From positions 352,842,001 to 352,906,000 of the forward strand of contig OZ024743.1 of NCBI GenBank assembly GCA_964016885.1: a DNA stretch of 64,000 nucleotides, given 5' to 3'. The notes beneath the pieces were generated by a model that had not been told where the DNA came from, did not search any database, and saw only the letters and a list, made by a program, of their open reading frames with translations. A program made the translations under genes and the position numbers. Below, in pieces: positions 3,550 to 64,000 of the stretch (the first letter of the stretch is position 1; the number at the start of each line of letters is the position of its first letter). Source of the stretch: Eledone cirrhosa. Lineage: Eukaryota.

Positions 3550-3800
3550 GTTTTCCCAGATATGGTAAAATGAACGGACCTGCTTTTACTCAAATACATT
3601 TCTTTGTTTCCACCTCTGATCATTCTCATTATTTTTCTTTCTAAACTTTTAACTTCTCATTCTATTTTCTGATGAAGGACGAGCGTTCGAAACGTTAAAA
3701 CTGTCCTACTACACTAAATGTGAAACTAATATATATATCTTCATTGTACTTCATCGTGTTTTTCATTTTTTGTTGTTATTTTTTTCATTTACTTTTCGTA
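3550..3800 (+). mobile_element. Penelope-like (pLTR) remnant, copy 1
   Basis: Homologous to 10090-10395 (-) and 42515-42700 (-): shared ATGAA(C/T)GGACCTG upstream with the 10 kb copy and A(A/C)CTAATATAT downstream of a hammerhead core in all three. Confidence 0.65.
3665..3700 (+). ncRNA. minimal type I hammerhead ribozyme
   Basis: UUUU CUGAUGA A GGAC-GAGC-GUUC GAAA CG UU^ AAAA: full core, 4-bp stem II, palindromic ACGU stem III, 4-bp stem I. Confidence 0.75.
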
Positions 3801-9948: not shown

Positions 9949-10006
<58 letters not shown>

Positions 10007-10089
10007 ATGAGGACAAACTTTTTCATATGTAACCCATTTGCAGCGCCGCAGCTCCATTATTATCATATATATATATATATATATATGTA

Positions 10090-10395
10090 TGTAAAAGGTA
10101 AACAGAAATAACAACACAATCGGTACGGTATATGGAAGGAATATATTAGGTTAACGCTTAATATAGCAGGAAGAGGGTCTTAACGTTTCGGACGCTAGTC
10201 CTTCGTCAGAAGAAAGAATAAGAAATTAAATAGATTGAATGGACGGGCGGGGTGGAATTGGAAAAATGCTTTTAGAGAAAAATAACAGGTCCATTCATGT
10301 TGCCATCTCTTGATATATATATATAATTGGTGTTGGATGTTTAAAGCGTCCGTATGCGGTAGGCCGTATAAGCACTCAATGCCCTCGTAGAGCAA
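10090..10395 (-). mobile_element. Penelope-like (pLTR) remnant, copy 2
   Basis: Homology to 3550-3800; contains a hammerhead and abuts (TA)n. Confidence 0.65.
10178..10213 (-). ncRNA. minimal type I hammerhead ribozyme (best copy)
   Basis: Minus strand reads UCUU CUGACGA A GGAC-UAGC-GUCC GAAA CG UU^ AAGA, with perfect stems I and II. Confidence 0.82.
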
Positions 10396-10689: not shown

Positions 10690-11056
10690 AATATAGATGA
10701 GATTCTACAGGACTAGAACTGTTTCATTCAATAGAAATCATATCTGGTCAATCCGGTGGAGAGAAACAATACATTGATGATTTAAGGAAAGATGTAAGAA
10801 AAGGTAGAAATTAGTAAGGATGAACGGGAAAAATGGGGATTATAAAGAGAATACAGGAATATATATATAAAGGTAAAAAAGAATATTAGATGAAAAAAAT
10901 TTATTGAAATATTCACTGTTGTATAAAAAAGAAATATAATAATAGAATGGGAATGAAAATATGAACACATATGATATATACAAAAGCATATAAATAACTG
11001 ATGATTTCTAATGAATGAAACAGTTCTAGTCCTGTAGAATCTCATCTATATTAAAA
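10686..11056. repeat. 56-bp inverted repeat pair (10686-10741 / 11001-11056), probably a Penelope-like end
   Basis: TTTTAATATAGATGAGATTCTACAGGACTAGAACTGTTTCATTCA... with 1 mismatch; a third copy of the arm lies at about 43842-43881. Confidence 0.75.
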
Positions 11057-13695: not shown

Positions 13696-13975
13696 TGTGG
13701 GTATGGTGTGGCGTGCGGTGGCCGGAGGCGGGGGAGTGCTCGACCGGAAGGGGTTTTTGAGTGCTCGACCGGAAGGGGTTTTTGGCCGGAAGGATGCTCG
13801 ACCGGAAGGGCCAGCAGAGGGCCTCTCTCTCGTGGTGACCAGCACACGGTGTGGACGCGAGTTTTGGGCAGCTCCCGGTGTTAAGCAGTCGGACGCACGT
13901 GGAAGAGGAGTACCTGCAGTGGTATTTAGCGGCGCCTGTGAAAAGCGGTAAGTGAGATAGATTTTTATAACTACA
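13696..13975 (+). repeat. 5' LTR (280 bp) with internal TGCTCGACCGGAAGGG repeats
   Basis: 13745-13975 matches 16048-16276 with only a few differences; ends ACTACA. Confidence 0.92.
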
Positions 13976-14049
13976 AGCTATTTCGGCGACTGAAAAAAAA
14001 AAAAAAAAAAAAAAAAAAAGAAAACACTTGCCGCAAAACAAATCAGAAG

Positions 14050-14811
14050 ATGGCGACAAGACTACGGATGAACGAAGCTATCAGGGCATTCACCGGGGAA
14101 GGTGGTGTTGTCGCTTGGCTGCGGAATGTTCGGCTGGTCGCAAGCTTGCAGAAGATAGAAGACGTGGCCGGCCTCATGGCATTGTACCTCGAGGGCGACG
14201 CGCTGGTACTCTTCCTTGAGTTGGACGAGCACAACCAAAGACATGTGCAGAAGATTGAGAGGCGTCTGATGGATGCATTCGCCGAGGGACCGTTGGCGGC
14301 TTTTGCTAAGCTGGCGAGAATCAGGTGGAATGGTGAGCGCATCGACATTTTCGCAGCGGAAATAAGGCGGTTGGCTATGTTGGCCGGTTACCAGTCGGAA
14401 TGCGAACGCACGGTGCGGTTGGCGTTCGTCAATGGATTTCCGGACGACATAGCGGTGAAACTGCAGCAAGTCCCGGGGTATAAAGAGATGGAAATGCGTT
14501 CACTGGTGGAACAAGCCCGGATCATAGCGGAAGATGCCAAAAATAGTGTTGCGGCGATAGCGACTACGGAGGCTCAGGACACCTGGCAGCGAAATGGTGA
14601 AAGGGAGGCAACCTCGGCACGCGGCCGTCCGCGTGAGTTTAGGGGGCGCTGTTTTAGGTGCCAGGGCCCGCATATGGCTAGAGACTGTAGAGAGTCGAAG
14701 CCGGAGATAATTTGCTACCGGTGTAAGCGACCAGGCCACATCGCTACTAACTGCGACCAGGGAAACGATCCAAGGGGAACTACTGCGCCGGTAGTTGCCC
14801 CTTACGAGTAG
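14050..14811 (+). CDS. gag: Gag polyprotein with two CCHC zinc knuckles (253 aa, intact)
   Basis: CFRCQGPHMARDC and CYRCKRPGHIATNC near the C-terminus; ORF follows the 5' LTR. Confidence 0.92.
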   Translation: MATRLRMNEAIRAFTGEGGVVAWLRNVRLVASLQKIEDVAGLMALYLEGDALVLFLELDEHNQRHVQKIERRLMDAFAEGPLAAFAKLARIRWNGERIDIFAAEIRRLAMLAGYQSECERTVRLAFVNGFPDDIAVKLQQVPGYKEMEMRSLVEQARIIAEDAKNSVAAIATTEAQDTWQRNGEREATSARGRPREFRGRCFRCQGPHMARDCRESKPEIICYRCKRPGHIATNCDQGNDPRGTTAPVVAPYE

Positions 14812-14817
14812 CGGCGC
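14760..14817 (+). promoter_or_regulatory. -1 programmed ribosomal frameshift signal (slippery heptamer plus pseudoknot)
   Basis: G GGA AAC is in the gag frame and the -1 frame is the protease frame. Stem AAGGGGAACTACT/GGTAGTTGCCCCTT; loop GCGCC pairs with GGCGC at 14813-14817. Confidence 0.8.
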
Positions 14818-16047
14818 TGCCCGTGGTGGAAGTCTTCGTGAGGGGGAAGCCACAGCGAGCCCTCGTGGATATGGGCTGTACGACGACACTGGTGACCGCG
14901 GGGGTGGCGCAAAGGTGGTGAGGGAAGAGCAGCGTAAGGGCAGTCGACGGCAGGAAAATTGAATGCCGAGGTCGCAGCGAGATGGAAATAGCGGTACGGG
15001 GAAGGACGATAGGGCTTTCCGCCATCGTGGTAGACAGTGTGGTGGGTGGGATCGGCGTGGTTATGGGCATGGACGCGATTGGCCGTCTAGGGGGCGTCAC
15101 GGTGAACAATGTCGGTGTGTCGTTTGGCGCCGCTGCATCGGTATGCGCTGTGAGTGCACGTCATGAGAACCAGAAGGCCCACGAGGAGGAATACCCCGCT
15201 TACACTGTACAGGACAAAGACTTCAAGGCCGTGTTTGATGGGCAGCGATGGGTTGTTGAGTGGTACTGGAAGGGAGAACCACCAACACTGAAGACCAAAG
15301 TGGGCTGCTATCAACACACATTGAAGGGAAACGCGAGGAGCGAGAAGTAGAGAGATGGATCGAAGAGGGCATACTGCTTCCCTGGAAGGAGGAGGTGAAG
15401 TGCGGAGTATTGCCGTTGATGGCGGTGGTGCAACCCACGAAGAGCAAGGTGAGGCCGGTGCTGGACTATCGGGAGCTGAACGAGCACGTGTCATGCCACA
15501 CGGGTGGCGAGGTCACGGATGTCTGTGGGGAAACCCTGCGTGAGTGGAGACGCATGACGAGGGGTTCAGCGATCGTGGATCTAAAGTCGGCTTACTTGCA
15601 GTTGCATATAGATGAGAAGCTCTGGCGGTATCAGCTGGTCAGTTATAAGGGCCGGACATATTGCCTGACCAGGCTCGGTTTCGGGCTGAGCTCCGCACCG
15701 AAGATCATGGCGGCGGTCCTCAAGACCGCTCTGGGGAGGGCCGACAAGATAAAGAGGGCTACTAACTCCTATATTGACGACATCCTAGTGGACGAGTCGG
15801 TGGTGTCGACGGCGGAGGTATGGACTGACTGCGAAGCCATCAGAAGCATTGGAGGGAGGAGCCGCGCTGGGACTTAGGCTATGGCGAGATAAGACGGGCG
15901 TTTTGGTGTTCCAGAGGGGAAACGAAGTTCCGGAACTGGGCCCAAGTATGAATAGGCGGGAGCTTTTCTCGGTGTGTGGAAAGCTGGTGGGTCACTACCC
16001 GATCGCTGGGTGGCTCCGGACGGCATGCAGCTATGTCAAGAGACGAG
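14760..16047 (+). pseudogene. pol: pol (protease, RT), disrupted; most of RNase H and all of integrase missing
   Basis: ALVDMGCTTTLV protease motif (DTG altered) followed by an in-frame TGA; RT motifs VRPVLDYRELN, VDLKSAYLQ, RLGFGLSSAP and SYIDDILV; several frameshifts. Confidence 0.9.
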
Positions 16048-21224: not shown

Positions 21225-23780
21225 ACCCCCGGGTTTAAGAAAGTATCTGATTGGTGACTGGCGCGAAAAAGACCACCAAAAATGCAATATGGTGAGAGGT
21301 ATGAAAAAGAACCATACCGATGCGTTCAGGCCTTAGGTAGACGGCCCGAAAAATATATTTCAATCTCCATTTCAACTCGAAAAAAACTGGCGATGGGCCT
21401 GCGACCTGTCCTAGGAGGCGTGGGATGGATGCACAAAGATTGCATATCCCGAGACTCCAAAGAAGTTCAGCAAATCTTGACAATTGGAACCTGGAATATC
21501 ACAAACCTTACAGGTAAGGACCAGGAAGTAGTGAAAAGGCTAGATACTACCTGTTAGATATAGTCGGGGTTTCCTCAACAAAGTTCCATGACTCTGATAC
21601 TGTAGATTTGAGTAGAGGATGGAAACTCCACTATTCAGTTGTGACGCCAGAAATGATTGCACAGGCAGAGGTGGGGATACTCACAAGACTCTGACTGTCA
21701 GAATGTGTTATGGACTGGATCCCATTAAGAGGGAGGATTTGCCTCTCGAAGCTTAGGTAGATAGATAGGTCTCTGTGTGTGGTGTAAGTTTATTCAACAA
21801 ATTAGTAGTCCGAATATAGATTCCTCCTTCATGAAGTCACTGCAGCGTTAGATATAGTTAAGACTGAGTCATATATCCTGATGGAAGACTTCAACGCACA
21901 TGTTGGCACTGACCATCTGATATGGAAAGTTATTTGCAGCTTGAGACTACATAAAGCCAAAGAAGCCCTCAACACTAGCAGGCCCAGTGCGACCTACAGA
22001 ATAAAATGAGAAGCGTTGGTGAATAAGGAAATCAGGAATAGATATGCAAATATTATCGCATCCAAATTCAGCGAACTCCCTGAGGAAACTGAGGACGTTG
22101 AAACAAAATGGTGATTGTTTAGCTCAGAGTTTCTGCTCCAGCTGTTAAATGCTGCGGGCGAAAGAGGCTTGGTGTGGCGCCGGATAGCAAGAAGAACCCT
22201 TGGTTCGATCAAGAGGTCAAAGATGCCATCCAAGCAAAGAAGGAGGTCTTCAAAGCTTGGCTTGGAAATAAGTCCTCCTTCTTGCACTTGCGGTACAAGT
22301 AGGTAGGAACATTCGCAGCAGAGACAGCAAAGGAGTCCAAAGTTAAACATTGGGGTTAAGCCGGAATCCGACTTCAGATCAGCAAATAAAGTGTTCTGGC
22401 AGACCATCCGCCGACTTCATAATAAGAAGTCCTCCACCACACTTGCTATCAGGAACGCATCTAAGGGGTTCTCTCTTTAGAGAAGTGCATCCTCGTAAGG
22501 TGGAGAGAATAATTTGCTGATCTCCTAAGGCCGGTCACAGAAGCATCTCCTGATATGCAAGGTGTATCTGGGAGCGGTCTCTAATTTCTCAGAGGCTGAG
22601 ATCACAAGAACAGTTAAAGCGCTCAAATGTGGCAAGGTCGCTGGGGAAGACGAAATCCCGCCTGAGATGTTAAAAGCCTTAAATAGAGAAGGTATTCTCT
22701 GGTTGACTCGTGTGTGTCGGCTGGCCTGGATCTTTGGAAAGTCATCTAAGCAATGGCAATCGGGAGTGCTAATCCCAATATTCAAAAAGGGAGACAAGAG
22801 GGATTGTTCCAATTACAGAGAGATCTCCTTGCTCAGCCTCCCTGGTAAAGTCTATGCTCAGTGTCTGGCAAAGAGATGTAGGGAGATTGTCAGGTCCAAG
22901 ATGAACAGTGCGGTTTTCGCCCCAGATTCAAGAGTCGACCAAATATTCATACTGCGGCAGGTCTTCGGGAAATCGTGGGAGTATTGCCAAGATGTATATT
23001 CTTGTTGTGTCAACCTCGAAAAGGCATATGACCACGTTCCTCGGGGCCTAATGCTGAAGGCTCTGCAGGAGTATGGGATCGATGATCAGCTTCTTGTAGC
23101 CCTGATGTCTCTTTATGAATGCCCGAGTATTTGTCCTCGAATAAATGGTGCTAAATCGAAACAATTCAACGTGCTTACTATTACCTCTCCTCTTCCTTAT
23201 TTTCATAAACATGATTGACATGCACAGCTTGGCTGGAAATGGTATCACGACTGGCAGGAGTAAAATCAATCGGTTGGAATTTGCAGACGACATGGTGTTA
23301 CTTAGATCGACAGAAGGTGATCTCCGATTTGCACTCAATAGGTTTGATGCCGAGTGCTGCATGGCTGGAATGAAAATCAATGCTGCGAAAACTGAGACAC
23401 TCGTGCTATCAAGGAAGCCTGCGCAGTGCACACTACATGTGAATGGAGTTCAACTGAAGCAGGTAGAGAAGTTCAAGTATCTTGGGGCCGCGTTCAAGAG
23501 TGATAGAAGGCAGGAGGCTGAATTAAGTGCAAGAATAGCAGGAGCTGGTGCAGTAATGCATTAGCTTCAGTATTCAGTAATCAGAAGAAGGGAGGTAGAT
23601 GTAAAAGCTAAACTCGTTATCCTCAATTCGGTATTCGTGCCAACCCTTACCTATGGTCATGAATCTTGGGCAATGTCCAAAAGAATACGATCGCGAATAC
23701 AAGCGGCCGAAATGCGGTTCGTCCGAAGGGTCTTTGGAGTAACATTACTCGATAGAGTGTGTAGCTCAGAGATCAGAGAT
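21225..23780 (+). mobile_element. RTE-clade LINE (second family), near full length, many stops and deletions
   Basis: APE start LTIGTWNITNL; RT motifs GKVAGEDEIPPEML, CSNYREISLLSLPGKVYA, NLEKAYDHV, EFADD, FKYLG and PTLTYGHESW. Confidence 0.92.
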
Positions 23781-36498: not shown

Positions 36499-36669
36499 TC
36501 AAGGATAAGAGAGAAAATGGGACATTGTAATGTCCATTATTTCCCGACAGAGAATCGAAAGCAGATCGTAATTTGTATTCCTCTACTACCATTGATGCTA
36601 CAATGATCTAATTGCCGGCTGAAGTAGTTTCACTTCCTTTACACAACCCATATCCTCGGGGTGGGGGTG

Positions 36670-37420
36670 GGGGAAGTGGTGTCATGACTGGAGGGTGTAT
36701 AATCAATCCGCTGGAACTTGCAGACGACATTGTGTTACTAATCTCCGATTTGCACTCGATAGGTTTGATGCCGAGTGCTGCATGGCTGGAATGAAAATCA
36801 GTGCTGCGAAAACTGAGACACTTGTCCTATCAAGGAAGCCTGCGCAATGCACACTATATGTAAATGGAGTTCCACTGAAGCAGGTAGAGAAGTTCAAGAG
36901 TCCAGGGGCCGTGTTCACGAGTGATGGAAGGCAGGAGGCTGAATTAAGTGCAAGAATTGCAGGAGTTGGTGCAGTAATGCGCCAGCTTCAGCATTCAGTA
37001 ATCAGAAGAAGGAAGGTAGGCGTAAAACCCAAACTCGTTATCTTTAATTCGGTATTCATACCAACCCTTTTCTATGGTCATGAATCTTGGGCAATGACCA
37101 AAAGAATATGATTGTGAATACAAGCGGTCGAAATGGGGTTCTTCCGAAGGGTCTTTGGAGTAACGTTACTCGATAGAGTGTGTAGCTCGAAGATCAGAGT
37201 GTCACTCCAGGTAGACCTACTACTTCTCCGAATTGAGAGACCATAGCTTCGATACTATGGGAATGTGGTTAGATTGTCTCAGGAAAAAATCGCTGGACAG
37301 ATTTCACGGGCAAAACCAACCGGCAGGAGACCCAGGTGTAGACCCTGAGCAAGATGGTTGGATAAGATCCAATTAGCTTGGCTGGTCTCGCTTGGAGATC
37401 CAGCTGGATCAGTTGGAGAT
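36670..37420 (+). mobile_element. RTE LINE 3' fragment
   Basis: ELADD, LRFALDRFDAECCMAGMKISAAKTE and PTLFYGHESW; cut at 37421 by the next element. Confidence 0.9.
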
Positions 37421-38587
37421 GGAATTTCGCACAAGTCTAACGGGGGGAAGAAGAAGAATTTTTTTCTCTCTCTGTCTTGCGTCTGCGACTTCACAAAACT
37501 TATGTTTACCGAATTCGTAGACCAGACCCCTTCTTCTTCTTCTTCTTCTTCTTCTTCTTCTTCTTCTTCTTCTTCCCCCCGTTAGACTTGTGCGAAATTC
37601 CTTCCTTCCTCACATTTCAACCAGGTTTGATGATCTTTTGTCTCTTGTTCACGATTTCACCGAGTTTATATTCATAGAGATCTGGGACTTGTCTATTTCT
37701 TCTCACTTTCCGTTGCTTAAACCATTTTGTTTGTTACCCTAACGTTCCCTTTATTTACGTGTCCCAACGATTTTTTTTAGCCGTTGTTCGCACCAACCTG
37801 AGGTATATGGCCCTTAAAGCGATGAAATGCCGGAGACGGTTGGAGGGTCACTGATGAAGGACTTACTTTTTCATATGCACCCCCATTTGCAACGCGCAGC
37901 CATCATTATTATCATATTTACACCTAATTTTTCTTCTGCTGCTACCCGTCTGTTTCGTTCTTTGTACCTTTTACCCTTTCTAGCAGTCTCTCTCTCTGTT
38001 AGCCTCCTCCTCAACTTTCACTCACTCATTCTCTGTCACTACCTCTCCTCCTCCTCTTTCCTCCTCTTCCTTCAAGTTTGACCTGTGTGTAATTCTTTTC
38101 TCGCGCGTTCTTGGTCAAGCCGGTATGAAAATTTTTTTTCTCTCTCTCTCTTGCGTCTGCGACTTCACAAAACTTATGTTTACCGAATTCATAGACCAGA
38201 CCCCTTCTTCTTCTTCTTCTTCTTCTTCTTCTTCTTCTTCTTCTTCTTCTTCCCCCCGTTAGACTTGTGCGAAATTCCTTCCTTCCTCACATTTCAACCA
38301 GGTTTGATGGTCTTTTGTCTCTTGTTCACGATTTCACCGAGTTTATATTCATAGAGATCTGGGACTTGTCTATTTCTTCTCACTTTCCGTTGCTTAAACC
38401 ATTTTGTTTGTTACCCTAACGTTCCCTTTATTTACGTGTCCCAACGACTTTTTTTAGCCGTTGTTCGCACCAACCTGAGGTATATGGCCCTTAAAGCGAT
38501 GAAATGCCTGAGACGGTTGGAGGGTCACTGATGAAGGACTTACTTTTTCATATGCACCCCCATTTGCAACGCGCAGCCATCATTATT

Positions 38588-38593
<6 letters not shown>
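37421..38593 (+). mobile_element. non-coding partial-tandem element (about 670-bp unit x1.7) with an inverted 5' piece; Penelope-like architecture
   Basis: 37457-37914 is repeated near-identically at 38130-38593; 37421-37458 is the reverse complement of about 37564-37601; ends at (TA)n. Confidence 0.75.
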
Positions 38594-38634
<41 letters not shown>

Positions 38635-42495: not shown

Positions 42496-42600
42496 GCGCG
42501 CGTGCGCGTGTGTGTAAAAGGGAAACAGTAATAACAAAGCAAACGACACAGTACATTGAAGAAATATATTAGTTTAACACTTGGAATAACAGGAAAAGAG

Positions 42601-42636
42601 TCTTAACGTTTCGGACAATAGGCCTTCATCAGAAGA
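42601..42636 (-). ncRNA. minimal type I hammerhead ribozyme, copy 3 (in Penelope-like remnant about 42515-42700)
   Basis: UCUU CUGAUGA A GGCC-UAUU-GUCC GAAA CG UU^ AAGA; one stem II mismatch. Confidence 0.72.
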
Positions 42637-42762
42637 TGGAGTTAGAAATAGAAGATGAATAGAAAGATAAAGAGTAAAAAGAGGGATAAAAATGAAAAAA
42701 AGGGGGAAAAACACGTGTATTCAGTCAGCCATTTTGGACACATACATACATACATACATACA

Positions 42763-46684: not shown

Positions 46685-47663
<979 letters not shown>

Positions 47664-49026: not shown

Positions 49027-51190
49027 TGTCAACTAAACTTGTTGAGACACATACAAATGATTAAAGATCTTTGCGTTCAGGGCCGTATTATTCATAAGGC
49101 TGGCTAAGCTGAAGCCTAGGGGCCCACCATTCTTTTCGTTTGTGCAGAGACACTATTAGCTGCGATCTAAGGCCCCAATGGTTAAAGGGCCACGGCCCTA
49201 TCAGCGTCACAGCAAACTTGAACTTCCCGCGTTTTTGTGGAGTTGATGAAACACTTCTTTCCTACATGGTCTTTGTAAACTGGAGCTCTGACCTTTAATA
49301 ATGCATGCTGAGTGAGCATTTGGGTTGTCACATTGACCTGCTAGAAATAGCAGCCAAATTCAGCATATTGTTAAAAAAAAAAACGATTGTATCCAAGACT
49401 AAGTTAAATACTGTAATATTAGATACACGATACCTGAAAAAAAAATGATGGTCATCGCTAGAACAATTTTGATCAGAGGTCTCTTTATTTAAGGTCAATG
49501 TGGGTTAAACAGCATGACGAACACCACCACAACCACCAGGTTGGATGGGGTGGTTATTATAGCTGTTGTTGTTTAGCCCCAAGTTTAACCTGCCAAGGTG
49601 GTGAATTGGCAGATTCGTTAGAGTGTCTTATAGAATGTCTTCCTGTATTTGTTCCATTTCTCTGAACTATGAGTTCAAATCCCGCTGAGAACAACTATTC
49701 CTTTCATCCATTAGGGGCCTTTAAACAAGGCACCAGTCAAATAGTACCAGGACGATTTTTCACCCCATCCTCTCTCAGAATCAGTTATATTGAAGGAGCC
49801 AATAAAGACGTGCTCATATAGTAGCCTCACATATCCTTTCACCACCATCACTGTGTGGACAGAGTGGTGGTGAAAGATATGCAAACTCATTATAAATTCT
49901 TTGTGTAATTCTAAATTTTTATAACTTACTCGATGAGAACTGATAGAAGACACAATGTTTCAGCAAGTTGGTAAATCTTGTCACATTACTCTCAGAATAA
50001 GGAGTTTTACTGAATGAAAAAAATACTAACAGACGGATTGGTCAACAAATTTCAGTCCATTGAAGAAACAGCCGTATTGTAGGAGTAAAGATAAAGGAGC
50101 ACTGGCGGGAATGCAAAGACAAGAAAAACTTGTTAGTGCTCCATTAACACGCCAAACTAAAGCATGGTGGCTCACTAGAAACATTCAAGTGAAGATCTTA
50201 TCCACACACCGGGCCGACACAATGCTTAGATAGATTAAAGAAGCCACCCAAATTTCAGAAACTAAACCCATCCTCAATACAAAGCAGGAGTTAAATAATA
50301 ACAACCCCACGACATAGTGATTGATGACAAAGGTATTACGACAGACAGACTGTGAGTACAGAGATGTGAATGAGTGTATACACATGCACATAAGTATATA
50401 GGTAAGGACATAGGAAAGTTATGGGTAGGTTACCAAGATACACAGAAATACACCATATACACAGATAGGTATGAACACACATAGAGATTTGTGGGAGTAG
50501 CAACATATAATCTACACATGCACGCACTCACACATGGCAGAAGTAATAAGAAGAATAGCAGCAATAGTCATGCTAACAGAAAATAGAATGAACATTAACC
50601 ATAACAATGAAGCCAATAATATACACAGAAAGAAAATGTAGCAGATAACACGTATGCGCACACACACAGATACCACACTACAAAGAGGACTGCAGTTAGA
50701 GACAAAGTCGAGACAAAGAAGGGACACAGAGGGCAAAATGCCATTGATAAGGTCATAGAATGTGTGATGAAAGAGCTTTGACTATCAAGTAAATAGCCGT
50801 TTGGTGTTTAACCGGCCGGTGAATGGATTAGTAACCTGATAAATAAGTGAAATTCAACTGGTGCTTGTGCTTTTATTGAAGCTCAAGAAAGTATGTGCAT
50901 CCACACACACACACACGTGTATGTGTGTATACACATACACACTCATGGTTCACATCTCCGTACTCACCGTCTGTGAGGCTCATTAGACCAGAGTTTACCA
51001 CCGTTATGTGACTCCCTCTGAACGGGCCGCCAATATGTCCCAGGGGATTAAACTGCTGGTACCCCAGAATAGCGATAGTCTAATGACTAGCATCAGTAAA
51101 AGAATAAATTAATAAAAGAATATGTATATAAGTATATACACATATATACGCAGACAATCATACACGCGCACGCAAACATACATACGTACA

Positions 51191-60228: not shown

Positions 60229-63200
60229 ATTATTATTATTATTAATTATTATTATTGTTCTTTGAGTCTCAGTCTTGATGTTAGTTAACTGGAAAGTTTG
60301 TTGAAATGAATATCAAGCCACTACCTGCAGCCTCAGATATTCAGGACGTACCGGAGGGTTCTTGCTGTTCCCAGCAAGCATGCCTTTTGAAGCGTTCCAA
60401 AAAGCGTGGCGGGGCCAATTTTCTTTAACCATCCCTGGAAACTTTTTGAGATAGTACCTAGTGCGCCTATGACAATCGGGACCACTTTGACTTCATGGGA
60501 ATGCCAAATCCTTTTTACCTCCCACTTTAAATCCTGGTATCGGTTAATTTTCTCCTTCTCCTTCTCTTGCACTCTCGTGTCGAATGGGCAGGCCACACCC
60601 ACAATCAGGCATGATCTTTTTTCTTGTCCAAAACCACCAGGCCAGGTCTATTGTGTTCCAGTTTCTTGTCCGTCTGTATCCTAAAATCCCACAGCACCTT
60701 CACCTGATCGTTTTCTATCACCGACTCTGGCTTATGCTCATACCACTTCTCAGAATGTGGTAAATTGTTTACTTTGCATAGGTGCCAGTGGATCACCCTG
60801 CCCATCACATCATGTCTCCAGCCTTTATAGTGAGTCTGGGCTAGGTGTTTACACTCGGATACAATGTGAGCCACAGTCTCCTCTCTCTCTCTCTCCACAG
60901 ATCCTGCACAGTGGGCTAGCCTCCTCCTTGTAAATATGGTGTTTCAACCACTTCGTTTTGAGGGCCTGCTCTTGCGCAGCCATTAGCATTCCTTCTGTAG
61001 CCTTTTTAAGGTCTCCTCTTTTCAACCAGTTCTATGTCTGTGGATCTCTGAATTCAATTTTCTCAAAGAAGGTACTATGAAGGGATTTTTCCTGAAGGCT
61101 GCTCTTTCTCCTTGTCGTTATTTCCTCCTTGGACATCCCCTGGTCTATTGTCCTCTCCTTCAGTACAATTCTGAGCATTGGCTCCTTACTATCAGTCACG
61201 TATTTGTGTAGGTTGTTTTTCTCCATCTGAACACAGTCCTCTATGCTGATAAGACCTTTTCCACCTTCAGATCTCCTTAAGTAGAGTCTATCGACATCAT
61301 TCCTCTTGTGGAACATGTTGTAGATAGTCAATAGCTTCCTAGTCTTCCTATCCATTTCTTTTTGTTCAGCAACATTCCATCTCAGAATTCCCGCACTGTA
61401 CCTAATAATAGACACAGCGCGGGAATTTACTGCACTTATGGCATTCCTACTGTTCAGATGTGACTTTAATACGCTCCTTACTCTCCGAATGTATTCAGAT
61501 CTTATCAATTCCTTCATTTGTTTGTTCTTGATGTCATCAGCCTCCAGAACACCCAAATACTTGTATCCTTCTTAAGTGTCAATTTCCTTTATCATCTCAC
61601 CTGTTGGTACCTGGATTCCGTTGCTTCTGCTCAATTTACCCCTCTTCATCACAAGGACTCCACACTTACTAATACCAAATTGCATATATATATCATTGCT
61701 GAAAATACGGACAGTGTCAACAAGCACATCAAACTCCTTCTCACTCTTCCCGAAGAGCTTAAGATCGTCCATGAAGAGGAGGTGATTGATGGTAAGCTCT
61801 CCCTTTCCCAACCTGTATCCTGCTCTCACTTTTCGCAGTATAATGGTCAGGGGCATCAGAGCAAGGACAAACAACAGAGGGGACAAACTATCTCCCTGGA
61901 AGATACCTCTCTTGATCTTCACGCCTCCCAAGGATTCTCCAGCTGATGTTAACTTTGTTTTCCAGGACTTCATACTTTTGCCCAACAACTGTCTGATGTT
62001 ATCTGCCACCTTGAAGATCTCTAGGCTTTTGGTGATCCAAGAATGAGGCACCATGTCAAATGCCTTTTTGTAGTCTATCCATCCCATGGCAAGACCAATG
62101 TGTCTCCTCTTGCAATTCCTCATTACCATCTTATCAATAAGTAACTGGTCCTTTGTACCACGGGACTTCTTTCGGCATCCTTTCTGTTCGTCCGGTAACA
62201 AGTTGTTTGTGTGGAGGTGATGGTAGATTTCCTCAGACATAATGCTTGTCAACAGTTTCCACATTACGGACAGACATGTGATAGGTCTATAGTTGGTAAC
62301 ATCATTACCCTTGATTCGGTCTTTCATTATCAGAACTGTGGTACCTTTTGTCAACCACTCTGGTACCTCACCCGACATCAAGCAGTCATTGAACATGGAT
62401 GTCAGTTTCGGGTGGAGGGATGTTATATTTTTAATCCAATACCCCTGCACACCATCTGGGCCTGGTGATTTCCAGTTGGTTAGTTTTTTGGCCTGCCCCT
62501 TAAGAGTTTCAACTGTAATACTCAAATCAGTTTGTTGGTGTGCCTGTTCACTAATCTCCTTTTGTACTGTCTCAATCCACACTGCCTGATCATCATGTTC
62601 AACATCCTGCTCCCATATTCCTCTCCAGAATGTCTTAGTTTGTTCCGCCTCAGGGATCAAGTCGTTACCTCTTTCTTTCCCTTCAAGTTGTCCAAACAAC
62701 ATCTTCTGGTTGTTGTCAAACATGCGGTTCTGTCTATACTGACTAACTCTGCTCTCGTATCGCCTAATTTTTGCACTCTTTGTTACAATGTGTTGCTTCA
62801 GTTCCTCTATGATAATATTTAGCTTTTTCCTCCTAGTTTTGTACTTTATTTCCAGTCTATTTTTAGTGTCTATGTTTTTAAGTGTCCCATTCAGTAGGGA
62901 CTCAAGCTTTCCAATGTCATTTCTCATTTCCCTGATTTGACCACTCAGTCGTTTCTTCCACCAAGGCTCTGATCTTTCTTGTTTGTTGTTTCCTCTCGCT
63001 TTAATACCAAGTAATTTCCTCACCGTATTTGCTGTTGCTTTGAGGATATTGTTGCACTGGTGAAGGCTCCCCGCCTCAAGGTATGGGATGACTTTGTTTA
63101 CCTTAGCTGTTGTTTCTTTTAACTTTTTCCTGTTTACAAATCTTAGGTTCATAGGTTTCCCACTATCATTGTTCAATTAATCTACAACTAAGTTTAGGAT

Positions 63201-64000
63201 ATCAACCAAATCTTGTCCTAGCCCGTCAGTATTCATCTCCTCAGTGGCCGTATCTTTGTTCCAGGTATTATTTATTTCAGCATTCAGATCATTGTCTGCT
63301 TCGGATGGTTCCTCTGTTCTCTCAACCTCTTCACCTTCATTTCCCACTGGCTCGTTTGCCTGGCATACTCCACTCTCCATTTCCAAGCTAATCTCTCTGC
63401 TCAGTTCCTCCAGTTCCAGCTCGCTTATCCACCCATTAGTTCTTATTACCCGAGCCTGCCCGGCCAATTTTTGTTCATCTAATTTAAATAGACCAATCTC
63501 GTTCCAGATGTTATGCATCCGTTTCCTATAGCCTTTCTCCTTGGGGTTACTCTTCAGGTAATATTGCATAACAGTTCTATTCAATTCTTTCGTCCAGTTG
63601 GTTCTGGTCCCTTTCCTTCTTCTTCTTCTTCTTCTTCTTCTTCTTCTTCTTCTTCTTCTTCTTCTTCTTCTTCTTCTTCTTCTTCTTCTTCTTCTTCTTC
63701 TTCTTCTTCTTCTTCTTCTTCTTCTTCTTCTTCTTCTTCTTCTTCTTCTTCTTCCGACACCAGCAGTATTTGGTTGACAGCCAGGTCCCTGCTGCTGAGC
63801 CAGGGAGCACCTGTTGGGTGAGAGTCTGTCACATGACATTCTAGTCTCCACTTCACCGTTATTCGAACTGTTTAGGTTCGACATTTAAACACTCTTATCG
63901 AGGATTGGCGAATGTATGGTTACATAACCACCGCTAATTTCATCACCTCCGGTGATTTCGTCACTCCCGGTGATTTTTGTGTGGCATTATCACGCTGTAG
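60229..64000 (-). mobile_element. R4/Dong-type RLE non-LTR retrotransposon, near full length, inactivated
   Basis: Originally one ORF (63884 to 60333): KSPGPDG, YRPITCL, IDYKKAFDMVPH, GIFQGDSLSPLLF, HLLFMDD, CRIC..ETVAHIVSEC and a mutated RPD-type RLE motif (RPG). Three in-frame stops, frameshifts and a (TAA)n tail. Confidence 0.92.
63616..63755. repeat. (CTT)n tract inside the RLE element ORF
   Basis: About 140 bp of pure repeat, read as poly-Arg in the ORF frame. Confidence 0.97.

Follow-up and report, generated by a model that had tools for sequence, protein, structure and literature searches.

Hammerhead ribozymes with a non-circular strand order have been described as type-SGC hammerheads (HRIMA-1 and SGC variants; Eckert et al. 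2023, PMC10085705). In these RNAs the cleavage-site block (S) is followed by the GAAA block (G) and the CUGAUGA block (C), all core stems are pseudoknotted, and cleavage in vitro occurs at the predicted site. As far as PMC10085705 was covered here, type-SGC RNAs come from metatranscriptomes and none from the genome of a known organism, non-circularly permuted hammerheads being represented only by environmental sequence and one weak bacterial candidate. A term search of its supplement gave no matches for 'octopus', 'mollusc' or 'metazoa'. Some hammerheads of types I–III have stems I and II docked by a Watson-Crick pseudoknot helix (Perreault et al. 2011, PMC3088659), with circular strand order and a normal stem II retained. 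Metazoan non-LTR retrozymes are non-coding tandem monomers of ~300 nt with one type I hammerhead per unit, and dependence on Penelope-like elements (PLEs) has been proposed for them (PMC7229834; bioRxiv 10.64898/2026.07.22.740005). Naiads are ORF-bearing elements that target (TA)n; they are found in cephalopods, there as long-inactivated remnants, and are without canonical hammerheads, eight being marked 'HHR_half_core' (Craig et al. 2021, PMC8557442). In the literature, with the supplements of PMC10085705 and PMC8557442 covered in part, we found no description of the wiring reported below or of permuted hammerheads in animal retroelements.

The RNA considered here belongs to elements in the 3.0-Gb genome of Eledone cirrhosa. 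The window, i.e. the whole stretch of DNA analysed, comprises 64,000 nt of contig OZ024743.1. We consider it probable that the elements form a Naiad-derived, Penelope-mobilised retrozyme family whose conserved block is a hammerhead with S-G-C order and a split stem II, the strands following each other as X-S-G-C (Table 1).

An earlier note had recognised a common block of ~150 nt in the elements 37421-38593 (+) and 47090-47663 (-). Alignment within the window confirms it: 37753-37907 (+) and 47251-47097 (-) have 156 nt in common with 76–77% identity (E about 1e-25), and two further stretches align with the block, one a second copy (38432-38597) and the other a 3' fragment (10005-10071). The third fragment, formerly placed at 10003-10065, is there as well, at 10004-10066, and turns out to be the 3' end of a third subfamily (C). 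Two other statements have to be revised. The units, said to be dissimilar over most of their length, are diverged homologues in which parts of the spacer align too, and the motif, thought to rest on two independent full copies, has thousands of pattern matches and 33 diverged copies that could be aligned. Subfamilies A, B and C gave 2653, 2509 and 915 first-look candidates in the genome, and the best 40 show 97–100% identity. The subfamily A monomer, taken between predicted cut sites, is 37808-38484 (677 nt). The inverted piece at the left end of the 37421-38594 element is 38–41 nt long and abuts a truncated LINE fragment (ORF 36623-37111), which we take to be of RTE type. The window copy of subfamily B has one copy-specific mismatch in helix IIb. 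The subfamily C fragment begins inside CUGAUGA and so has no intact ribozyme; at least 40 copies of this subfamily are identical across 62 nt.

Table 1. Elements in the window and predicted parts of the ribozyme block (positions of the window)
Feature	Position	Strand	Remarks
Short inverted 5' piece of subfamily A element	37421..37458	-	Reverse complement of 37564-37601, 38/38 identical
Subfamily A element	37453..38594	+	5'-truncated partial tandem, ORF-less, 69% pyrimidine
Strand y (GUCC)	37761..37764	+	Pairs with GGAC 37859-37862 (helix IIa); 107/132 cells paired
Upstream hairpin of predicted four-way junction	37765..37786	+	85.3% paired; both sides changed in 6/7 pairs
Strand x (UCGC)	37788..37791	+	Pairs with GCGA 37819-37822 (helix IIb); 93.2% paired; both-side changes in 3/4 pairs
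CCAACC	37793..37798	+	Pairs with GGUUGG 37838-37843, predicted stem I/II docking helix; 90.9% paired
Block S	37802..37814	+	Stem III 3' strand 37802-37806, H17 = A37807, stem I 5' strand 37808-37814
Block G	37819..37831	+	x' 37819-37822, N 37823, GAAA 37824-37827, stem III 5' strand 37827-37831
GGUUGG, then block C	37838..37862	+	Stem I 3' strand 37844-37850, CUGAUGA 37851-37857, N 37858, y' 37859-37862
Second predicted ribozyme copy of subfamily A tandem	38438..38539	+	H17 = A38484
(TA)n target at long 3' end site of subfamily A element	38591..38625	.	
Subfamily B element	47090..47663	-	About 1.1 units of ~520-nt monomer, within (TA)n
Subfamily B predicted ribozyme	47243-47142	-	H17 = 47197
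3' end of subfamily C	10004..10066	+	5'-truncated, within (TA)n

Several other repeats are found in the same window. A regular expression located four minimal type-I-like hammerhead motifs of other repeat families at 3661-3703 (+), 10990-11031 (+), 10175-10217 (-) and 42598-42640 (-); a fifth match at 22072-22114 looks like chance. Retroelement fragments and a remnant lie at 13942-15877 (+), 36623-37420, 22529-23218 and 50070-50290, presumably a Gypsy-like gag-pol fragment, RTE-type LINE fragments and a PLE GIY-YIG remnant. At 61032-63884 (-) there is a non-LTR element, R4/HERO-like as we assume, whose 5' reading frame includes a (CTT)46 run and at whose 3' end no permuted motif was seen.

Comparison of the subfamilies gives the arrangement of the core. 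The strand 5' of the cut-site A pairs with the strand 3' of GAAA as stem III, and the strand 3' of the cut-site A pairs with the strand 5' of CUGAUGA as stem I. The resulting order of blocks (S-G-C) is no circular permutation of the hammerhead. Cleavage would be expected at 37807/37808, i.e. after A37807. In our model the place of stem II is taken by a predicted four-way junction, to which the upstream strand contributes two helices and a hairpin. The CCAACC/GGUUGG helix presumably docks stems I and II. The earlier reading had missed the junction helices as well as stems I and III. A G–C pair is typical at the base of stem II, but in simple numbering it is not kept here: the letters just 5' of GAAA and just 3' of CUGAnGA make a standard pair in 24 of the 33 copies. 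Two numberings fit. Either the letters flanking GAAA and CUGAUGA are a one-pair stem II, or the conserved G (31 of 33 copies) would be G10.1, paired to an upstream C, with the core split in the model.

Type-SGC hammerheads resemble this block not only in strand order and pseudoknotted stems, but also in the short linker between the stem I 5' strand and the G block and in an extra helix beside stem I (PMC10085705, as far as covered). There are also clear differences. In type-SGC RNAs stem II joins blocks G and C directly, whereas here the upstream strand intervenes, and the partner of the extra helix lies 3' of stem II in the former and upstream of block S, where it covaries, in the latter. Moreover, the present motif comes from an animal genome and not from metatranscriptomes. 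The predicted docking helix is reminiscent of that in the pseudoknot-docked hammerheads of types I–III, which differ in both their strand order and their stem II. Compared with metazoan non-LTR retrozymes, the elements share the non-coding tandem organisation with one hammerhead per unit and the proposed PLE dependence, but their hammerhead is non-circularly permuted and their monomers are longer (518–792 nt).

The S-G-C pattern has 17,588 matches in the genome against 25 in the reversed control, a count that takes in tandem units and some overlapping matches at TA runs. Two further patterns for divergent families gave 687 against 0 and 372 against 2. With the full descriptor 158 matches were obtained, against none in the reversed control, in 1.24 Mb of loci from the same genome, a set enriched by choice. 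An alignment of 33 representatives has a mean column identity of 68%. Truncated or chimeric copies (L111, L115, L127 and L077) were dropped from the counts; L131, L106, L117, L051 and L122 stand outside this alignment and inside an overlapping set of 24 copies, which is 92.5% paired.

Taken together over the 33 copies, the four core helices (stems I and III, helix IIb and the CCAAC/GGUUGG helix) reach 94.2% pairing. Both sides vary in 17 of their 21 pairs, and 140 cells are compensatory. In slid controls the same helices are 30–47% paired. Their covariation is 0.555 as compared to 0.226 after shuffling, and none of 500 shuffles was as high; shuffle controls are not probabilities here because the copies are kin. 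Stems I and III, at 96.4% paired each, covary. The CCAAC/GGUUGG pairing, one of those in the earlier note, holds and covaries as well, with both-side changes in five of six pairs. For helix IIa (GUCC/GGAC, AUCC/GGAU, UUCCC/GGGAA) the shuffle mean is 91 paired cells, and the observed number was reached in none of 2000 shuffles. In all, six helices covary. A continuous stem II between the CUGAnGA and GAAA strands is absent (45.5% paired over four pairs). CUGAnGA and GAAA are present in 33 of 33 copies, an invariance that is partly circular because the patterns and the descriptor demanded both motifs, except for subfamilies A, B and C. At the junction of stems III and I, U16.1 of A15.1–U16.1 is found in 32 of 33 copies, and the same number have A or U as H17, the exception being one copy with a 1-nt gap. 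Single-strand folding (z -0.21 and -1.28) is uninformative for an RNA with multiple pseudoknots.

Judged by its sequence, the block is a hammerhead with a non-circular strand order and not a new ribozyme class, because GAAA and CUGAUGA make up the hammerhead core in S-G-C order. Apart from a continuous stem II, every hammerhead feature looked for in the sequence is present. The canonical topology is absent, as the earlier note had seen: no canonical type I, II or III fold was obtained, no GAAA occurs within 80 nt 3' of CUGAUGA in the three window copies, and the type I layout does not apply to these elements. Judged by eye against their consensus, the layouts of pistol, twister, hairpin, HDV-like and type I/II hammerhead ribozymes were dropped; canonical hammerhead order was the one layout among them checked by computation. 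The published type-SGC descriptor (CGAAA, CUGAUGAG and at least two more stem II pairs) is passed by 0 of 172 instances and 0 of 33 representatives, because stem II is split and uses an upstream strand. We file the motif as a new hammerhead variant and not as a type-SGC member. The failure of the descriptor would explain why the RefSeq search of PMC10085705, in the part covered, reported none in known organisms. Our pattern has at least 119 matches in metagenomes, and among the matches listed 0 of 119 pass the full descriptor.

A structured or self-cleaving RNA class unrelated to hammerheads, folded in the way that the earlier note proposed, might be suspected from the failure of both the canonical and the type-SGC descriptors and from the Rfam search, where nothing reached the gathering score and an E-value search returned miRNA, snoRNA and sRNA far below their cut-offs. 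One of the helices proposed for such a fold, CCAAC/GGUUGG, does hold. Two of the others do not: in the 33 copies the hairpin CGGAGAC/GUCACUG reaches 46.8% pairing, and the downstream pairing GGUAUAUG/CAUAUG lacks conservation, any 5-bp Watson-Crick complement in the tail being present in just 13 of 33 copies. As to AUGAAGGA..UCAU, the UCAU tail is missing in the divergent families. The hammerhead mapping accounts for every core element and predicts stems that covary, which leaves the unrelated class hardly credible. The earlier suggestion of a conserved and pseudoknotted RNA stands. That of an undescribed one stands with respect to the wiring, as far as the literature was searched, and falls with respect to a new self-cleaving class.

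It is likely that the block self-cleaves after A37807, as the analogy to hammerheads predicts. A right fold that no longer cuts, or cuts only with protein, and serves as a recognition signal for the reverse transcriptase (RT) would agree with the split stem II and the variable basal pair (24 of 33), and with priming sites at fixed distances from the motif. PLE hammerheads are, moreover, often poor cleavers in vitro (PMC4209133, in the part covered). Binding alone would not obviously need NUH and stems I and III to stay in register with the core across families that average 68% column identity, however, and we regard this alternative as improbable.

The carrier is retrozyme-like and non-coding, in agreement with the earlier note. 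Twenty-four distinct head-to-tail monomers of 518–792 nt have one ribozyme motif each, and the longest Met-ORF is 84–88 aa in the two units tested. The elements are 5'-truncated and partially tandem, and often inverted at the 5' side. Their 3' ends had been described as meeting (TA)n at nearly one position; there are in fact two fixed sites, counted from CUGAUGA, one at about +14 to +16 and the other at about +52 to +66, and in one subfamily the 3' end site is at +44. Two-armed insertions combine a long with a short end in 10 of 10 cases (9 independent); the queries used for subfamilies A and C were biased towards insertions with one or more long ends. PLEs have a one-sided tail of 30–40 bp (PMC8557442, as far as covered). 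The paired long and short ends match this tail and are of Penelope type. Naiads share with our elements the (TA)n targeting, partial tandems, inverted 5' copies and one-sided tail, and differ in having ORFs (PMC8557442, covered in part).

A non-LTR (LINE-type) enzyme moving the same ribozyme-bearing element has in its favour the presumed R4/HERO-like element in the window; that element shows no such motif, and partial tandems, inverted 5' arms and paired long/short ends are the pattern described for PLEs. We consider the LINE-type enzyme very improbable, and a Penelope-type enzyme remains the preferred one.

The 5' ends of copies cluster near the predicted cut. The cluster is broad (-12 to +13), and some of its ends lie 5' of the cut. 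Of 99 unselected arms in young families, 8 (7 loci) start at +5 to +13, as compared to 0–4 per 10-nt flanking bin; a bin of 7 at -50 is partly an artefact of subfamily mismatch. In older families script bins over 91 segments hold 6, 11, 12, 7, 1 and 54 ends, and counting by eye gave ~22 ends at -12 to +10, none at -13 to -25 and 4 at -26 to -45, after indel variants, internal deletions and one non-family match had been dropped. The cluster is in line with cutting at the predicted site, and is suggestive only because AT-rich microhomology or RT stalling could also cluster ends. In L320/L321 and L402 two arms stand back to back, and they join at the predicted cut site or no more than 5 nt from it. 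Separately, L100 has a long near-perfect palindrome at 1250-1680 with CUGAGGA and GAAA on both strands.

A candidate autonomous partner carrying the block is found by eye in the Naiads of other genomes, and not in this genome among 79 PLE loci and 28 Naiad remnants. In the part of the PMC8557442 supplement covered, where no such fold is described, several of the consensus sequences have, on inspection by eye, the same fold at their 3' ends. In Naiad_Ovul and in the preceding record, which is probably Naiad_Obim, its distance from the 3' end is ~70 nt. Both have y/y', x/x', the docking helix, stems I and III and GUA, together with a hairpin whose 8-nt loop is the same as in several families here and the same 23-nt spacing between GAAA and CUGAUGA. 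Four more Naiad passages (three near-identical records and one other) fit by eye; several other CUGAnGA passages in the Naiad listing have no obvious fit, the inspection covering part of the Naiads.

In E. cirrhosa, two Naiad patterns, including the exact Naiad motif pattern, gave no matches in the genome and a third gave 8 decayed copies. The Naiad remnants of this genome resemble Naiad_Ovul. Naiad-like sequence is decayed: there are 69 matches from 106 candidates, the longest open frame is 233 aa, and no match exceeds 83% identity except the query itself. None of 28 fetched Naiad remnants has a motif of its own, and in a downstream block common to six of them the motif was not seen. PLEs with a C-terminal endonuclease (EN) are young here and (TA)n-targeted, one family being 98–99% identical, and have intact ORFs of 844–1096 aa. 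The GIY-YIG loci proved to be PLEs of this kind, and loci of such PLEs with the motif in their own end were 0 of 30, 0 of 29 and 0 of 20. In two of the C-terminal-EN families no CUGAnGA..GAAA was seen near the 3' ends (L340 3300-3600, L348 3600-3830, L346 3450-3680, L358 2800-3050), and these have a conserved block just 5' of (TA)n that is possibly another structured RNA.

Contacts between the two kinds of element do occur. In L105 (1085-3970) an element arm and a truncated PLE ORF are fused through their 5' sides, and the joint has no TA run; that truncated copy has its own minimal type I hammerhead. The fusion is absent from 29 of 29 further copies of the same PLE family. Together with a compound one, this clean case makes two 5'-5' PLE fusions, in loci picked for the motif. 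A third hammerhead fragment is present at the joint in L091/L092, which are 97% identical duplicates. Apparent PLE fusions in L103 and L122 were rejected, TA runs lying between the parts, and in L346, L348 and L355 the motifs close to PLE ORFs belong to insertions distinct from the PLEs (L346 and L348 viewed). In L150 (2665-2899) an inverted piece from this element family interrupts the 3' region of a PLE copy.

Because the Naiads are decayed while some subfamilies are young, another Penelope-type enzyme may now move the elements. Such a switch of helper is plausible but weakly supported. As to the present-day partner alone, an active Naiad family may have been missed, the Naiad searches being a loose first look with two short patterns and one 119-aa query, and Naiads of other species do have the motif at their 3' ends. 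On the other hand, scoring covered all 106 candidates; none of the 69 matches has an open frame longer than 233 aa or, bar the query, an identity above 83%, and the cephalopod Naiads of PMC8557442, as far as covered, are long inactivated. An active Naiad helper seems to us unlikely, though less so than the rivals discussed above, and we prefer a helper of another Penelope-type family.

The following sequence of events is proposed. A tandem or read-through transcript would be cut once per unit to give a monomer of 520–790 nt, which would be ligated to a circle. A Penelope-type RT/GIY-YIG enzyme acting in trans would nick (TA)n and prime at two fixed points 3' of the ribozyme, and copying beyond one unit length would give partial tandems and back-to-back arms. 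The ribozyme would have been derived from the 3' end of a Naiad, and the young subfamilies probably depend for their mobility on another Penelope-type family that targets (TA)n.

These elements place the motif in an animal genome in thousands of copies, with deep natural covariation. Its wiring goes beyond the six three-block permutations considered in PMC10085705, as far as covered, and standard descriptors miss such motifs. A hammerhead of this kind at Naiad 3' ends would explain why Naiads seemed to be hammerhead-less, and would undercut the suggestion, made in the covered part of PMC8557442, that hammerheads are dispensable for, or mere parasites of, Penelope-like elements. A wider proposal is tentative, and we lean slightly against it: the Naiad clade may, across phyla, have the four-block split-stem-II hammerhead as its active ribozyme, and non-coding derivatives of it may in this genome have outlived their Naiad parent and changed to another Penelope-type enzyme. 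If this is so, an RNA parasite would have switched its helper and yet kept a complex ribozyme under selection.
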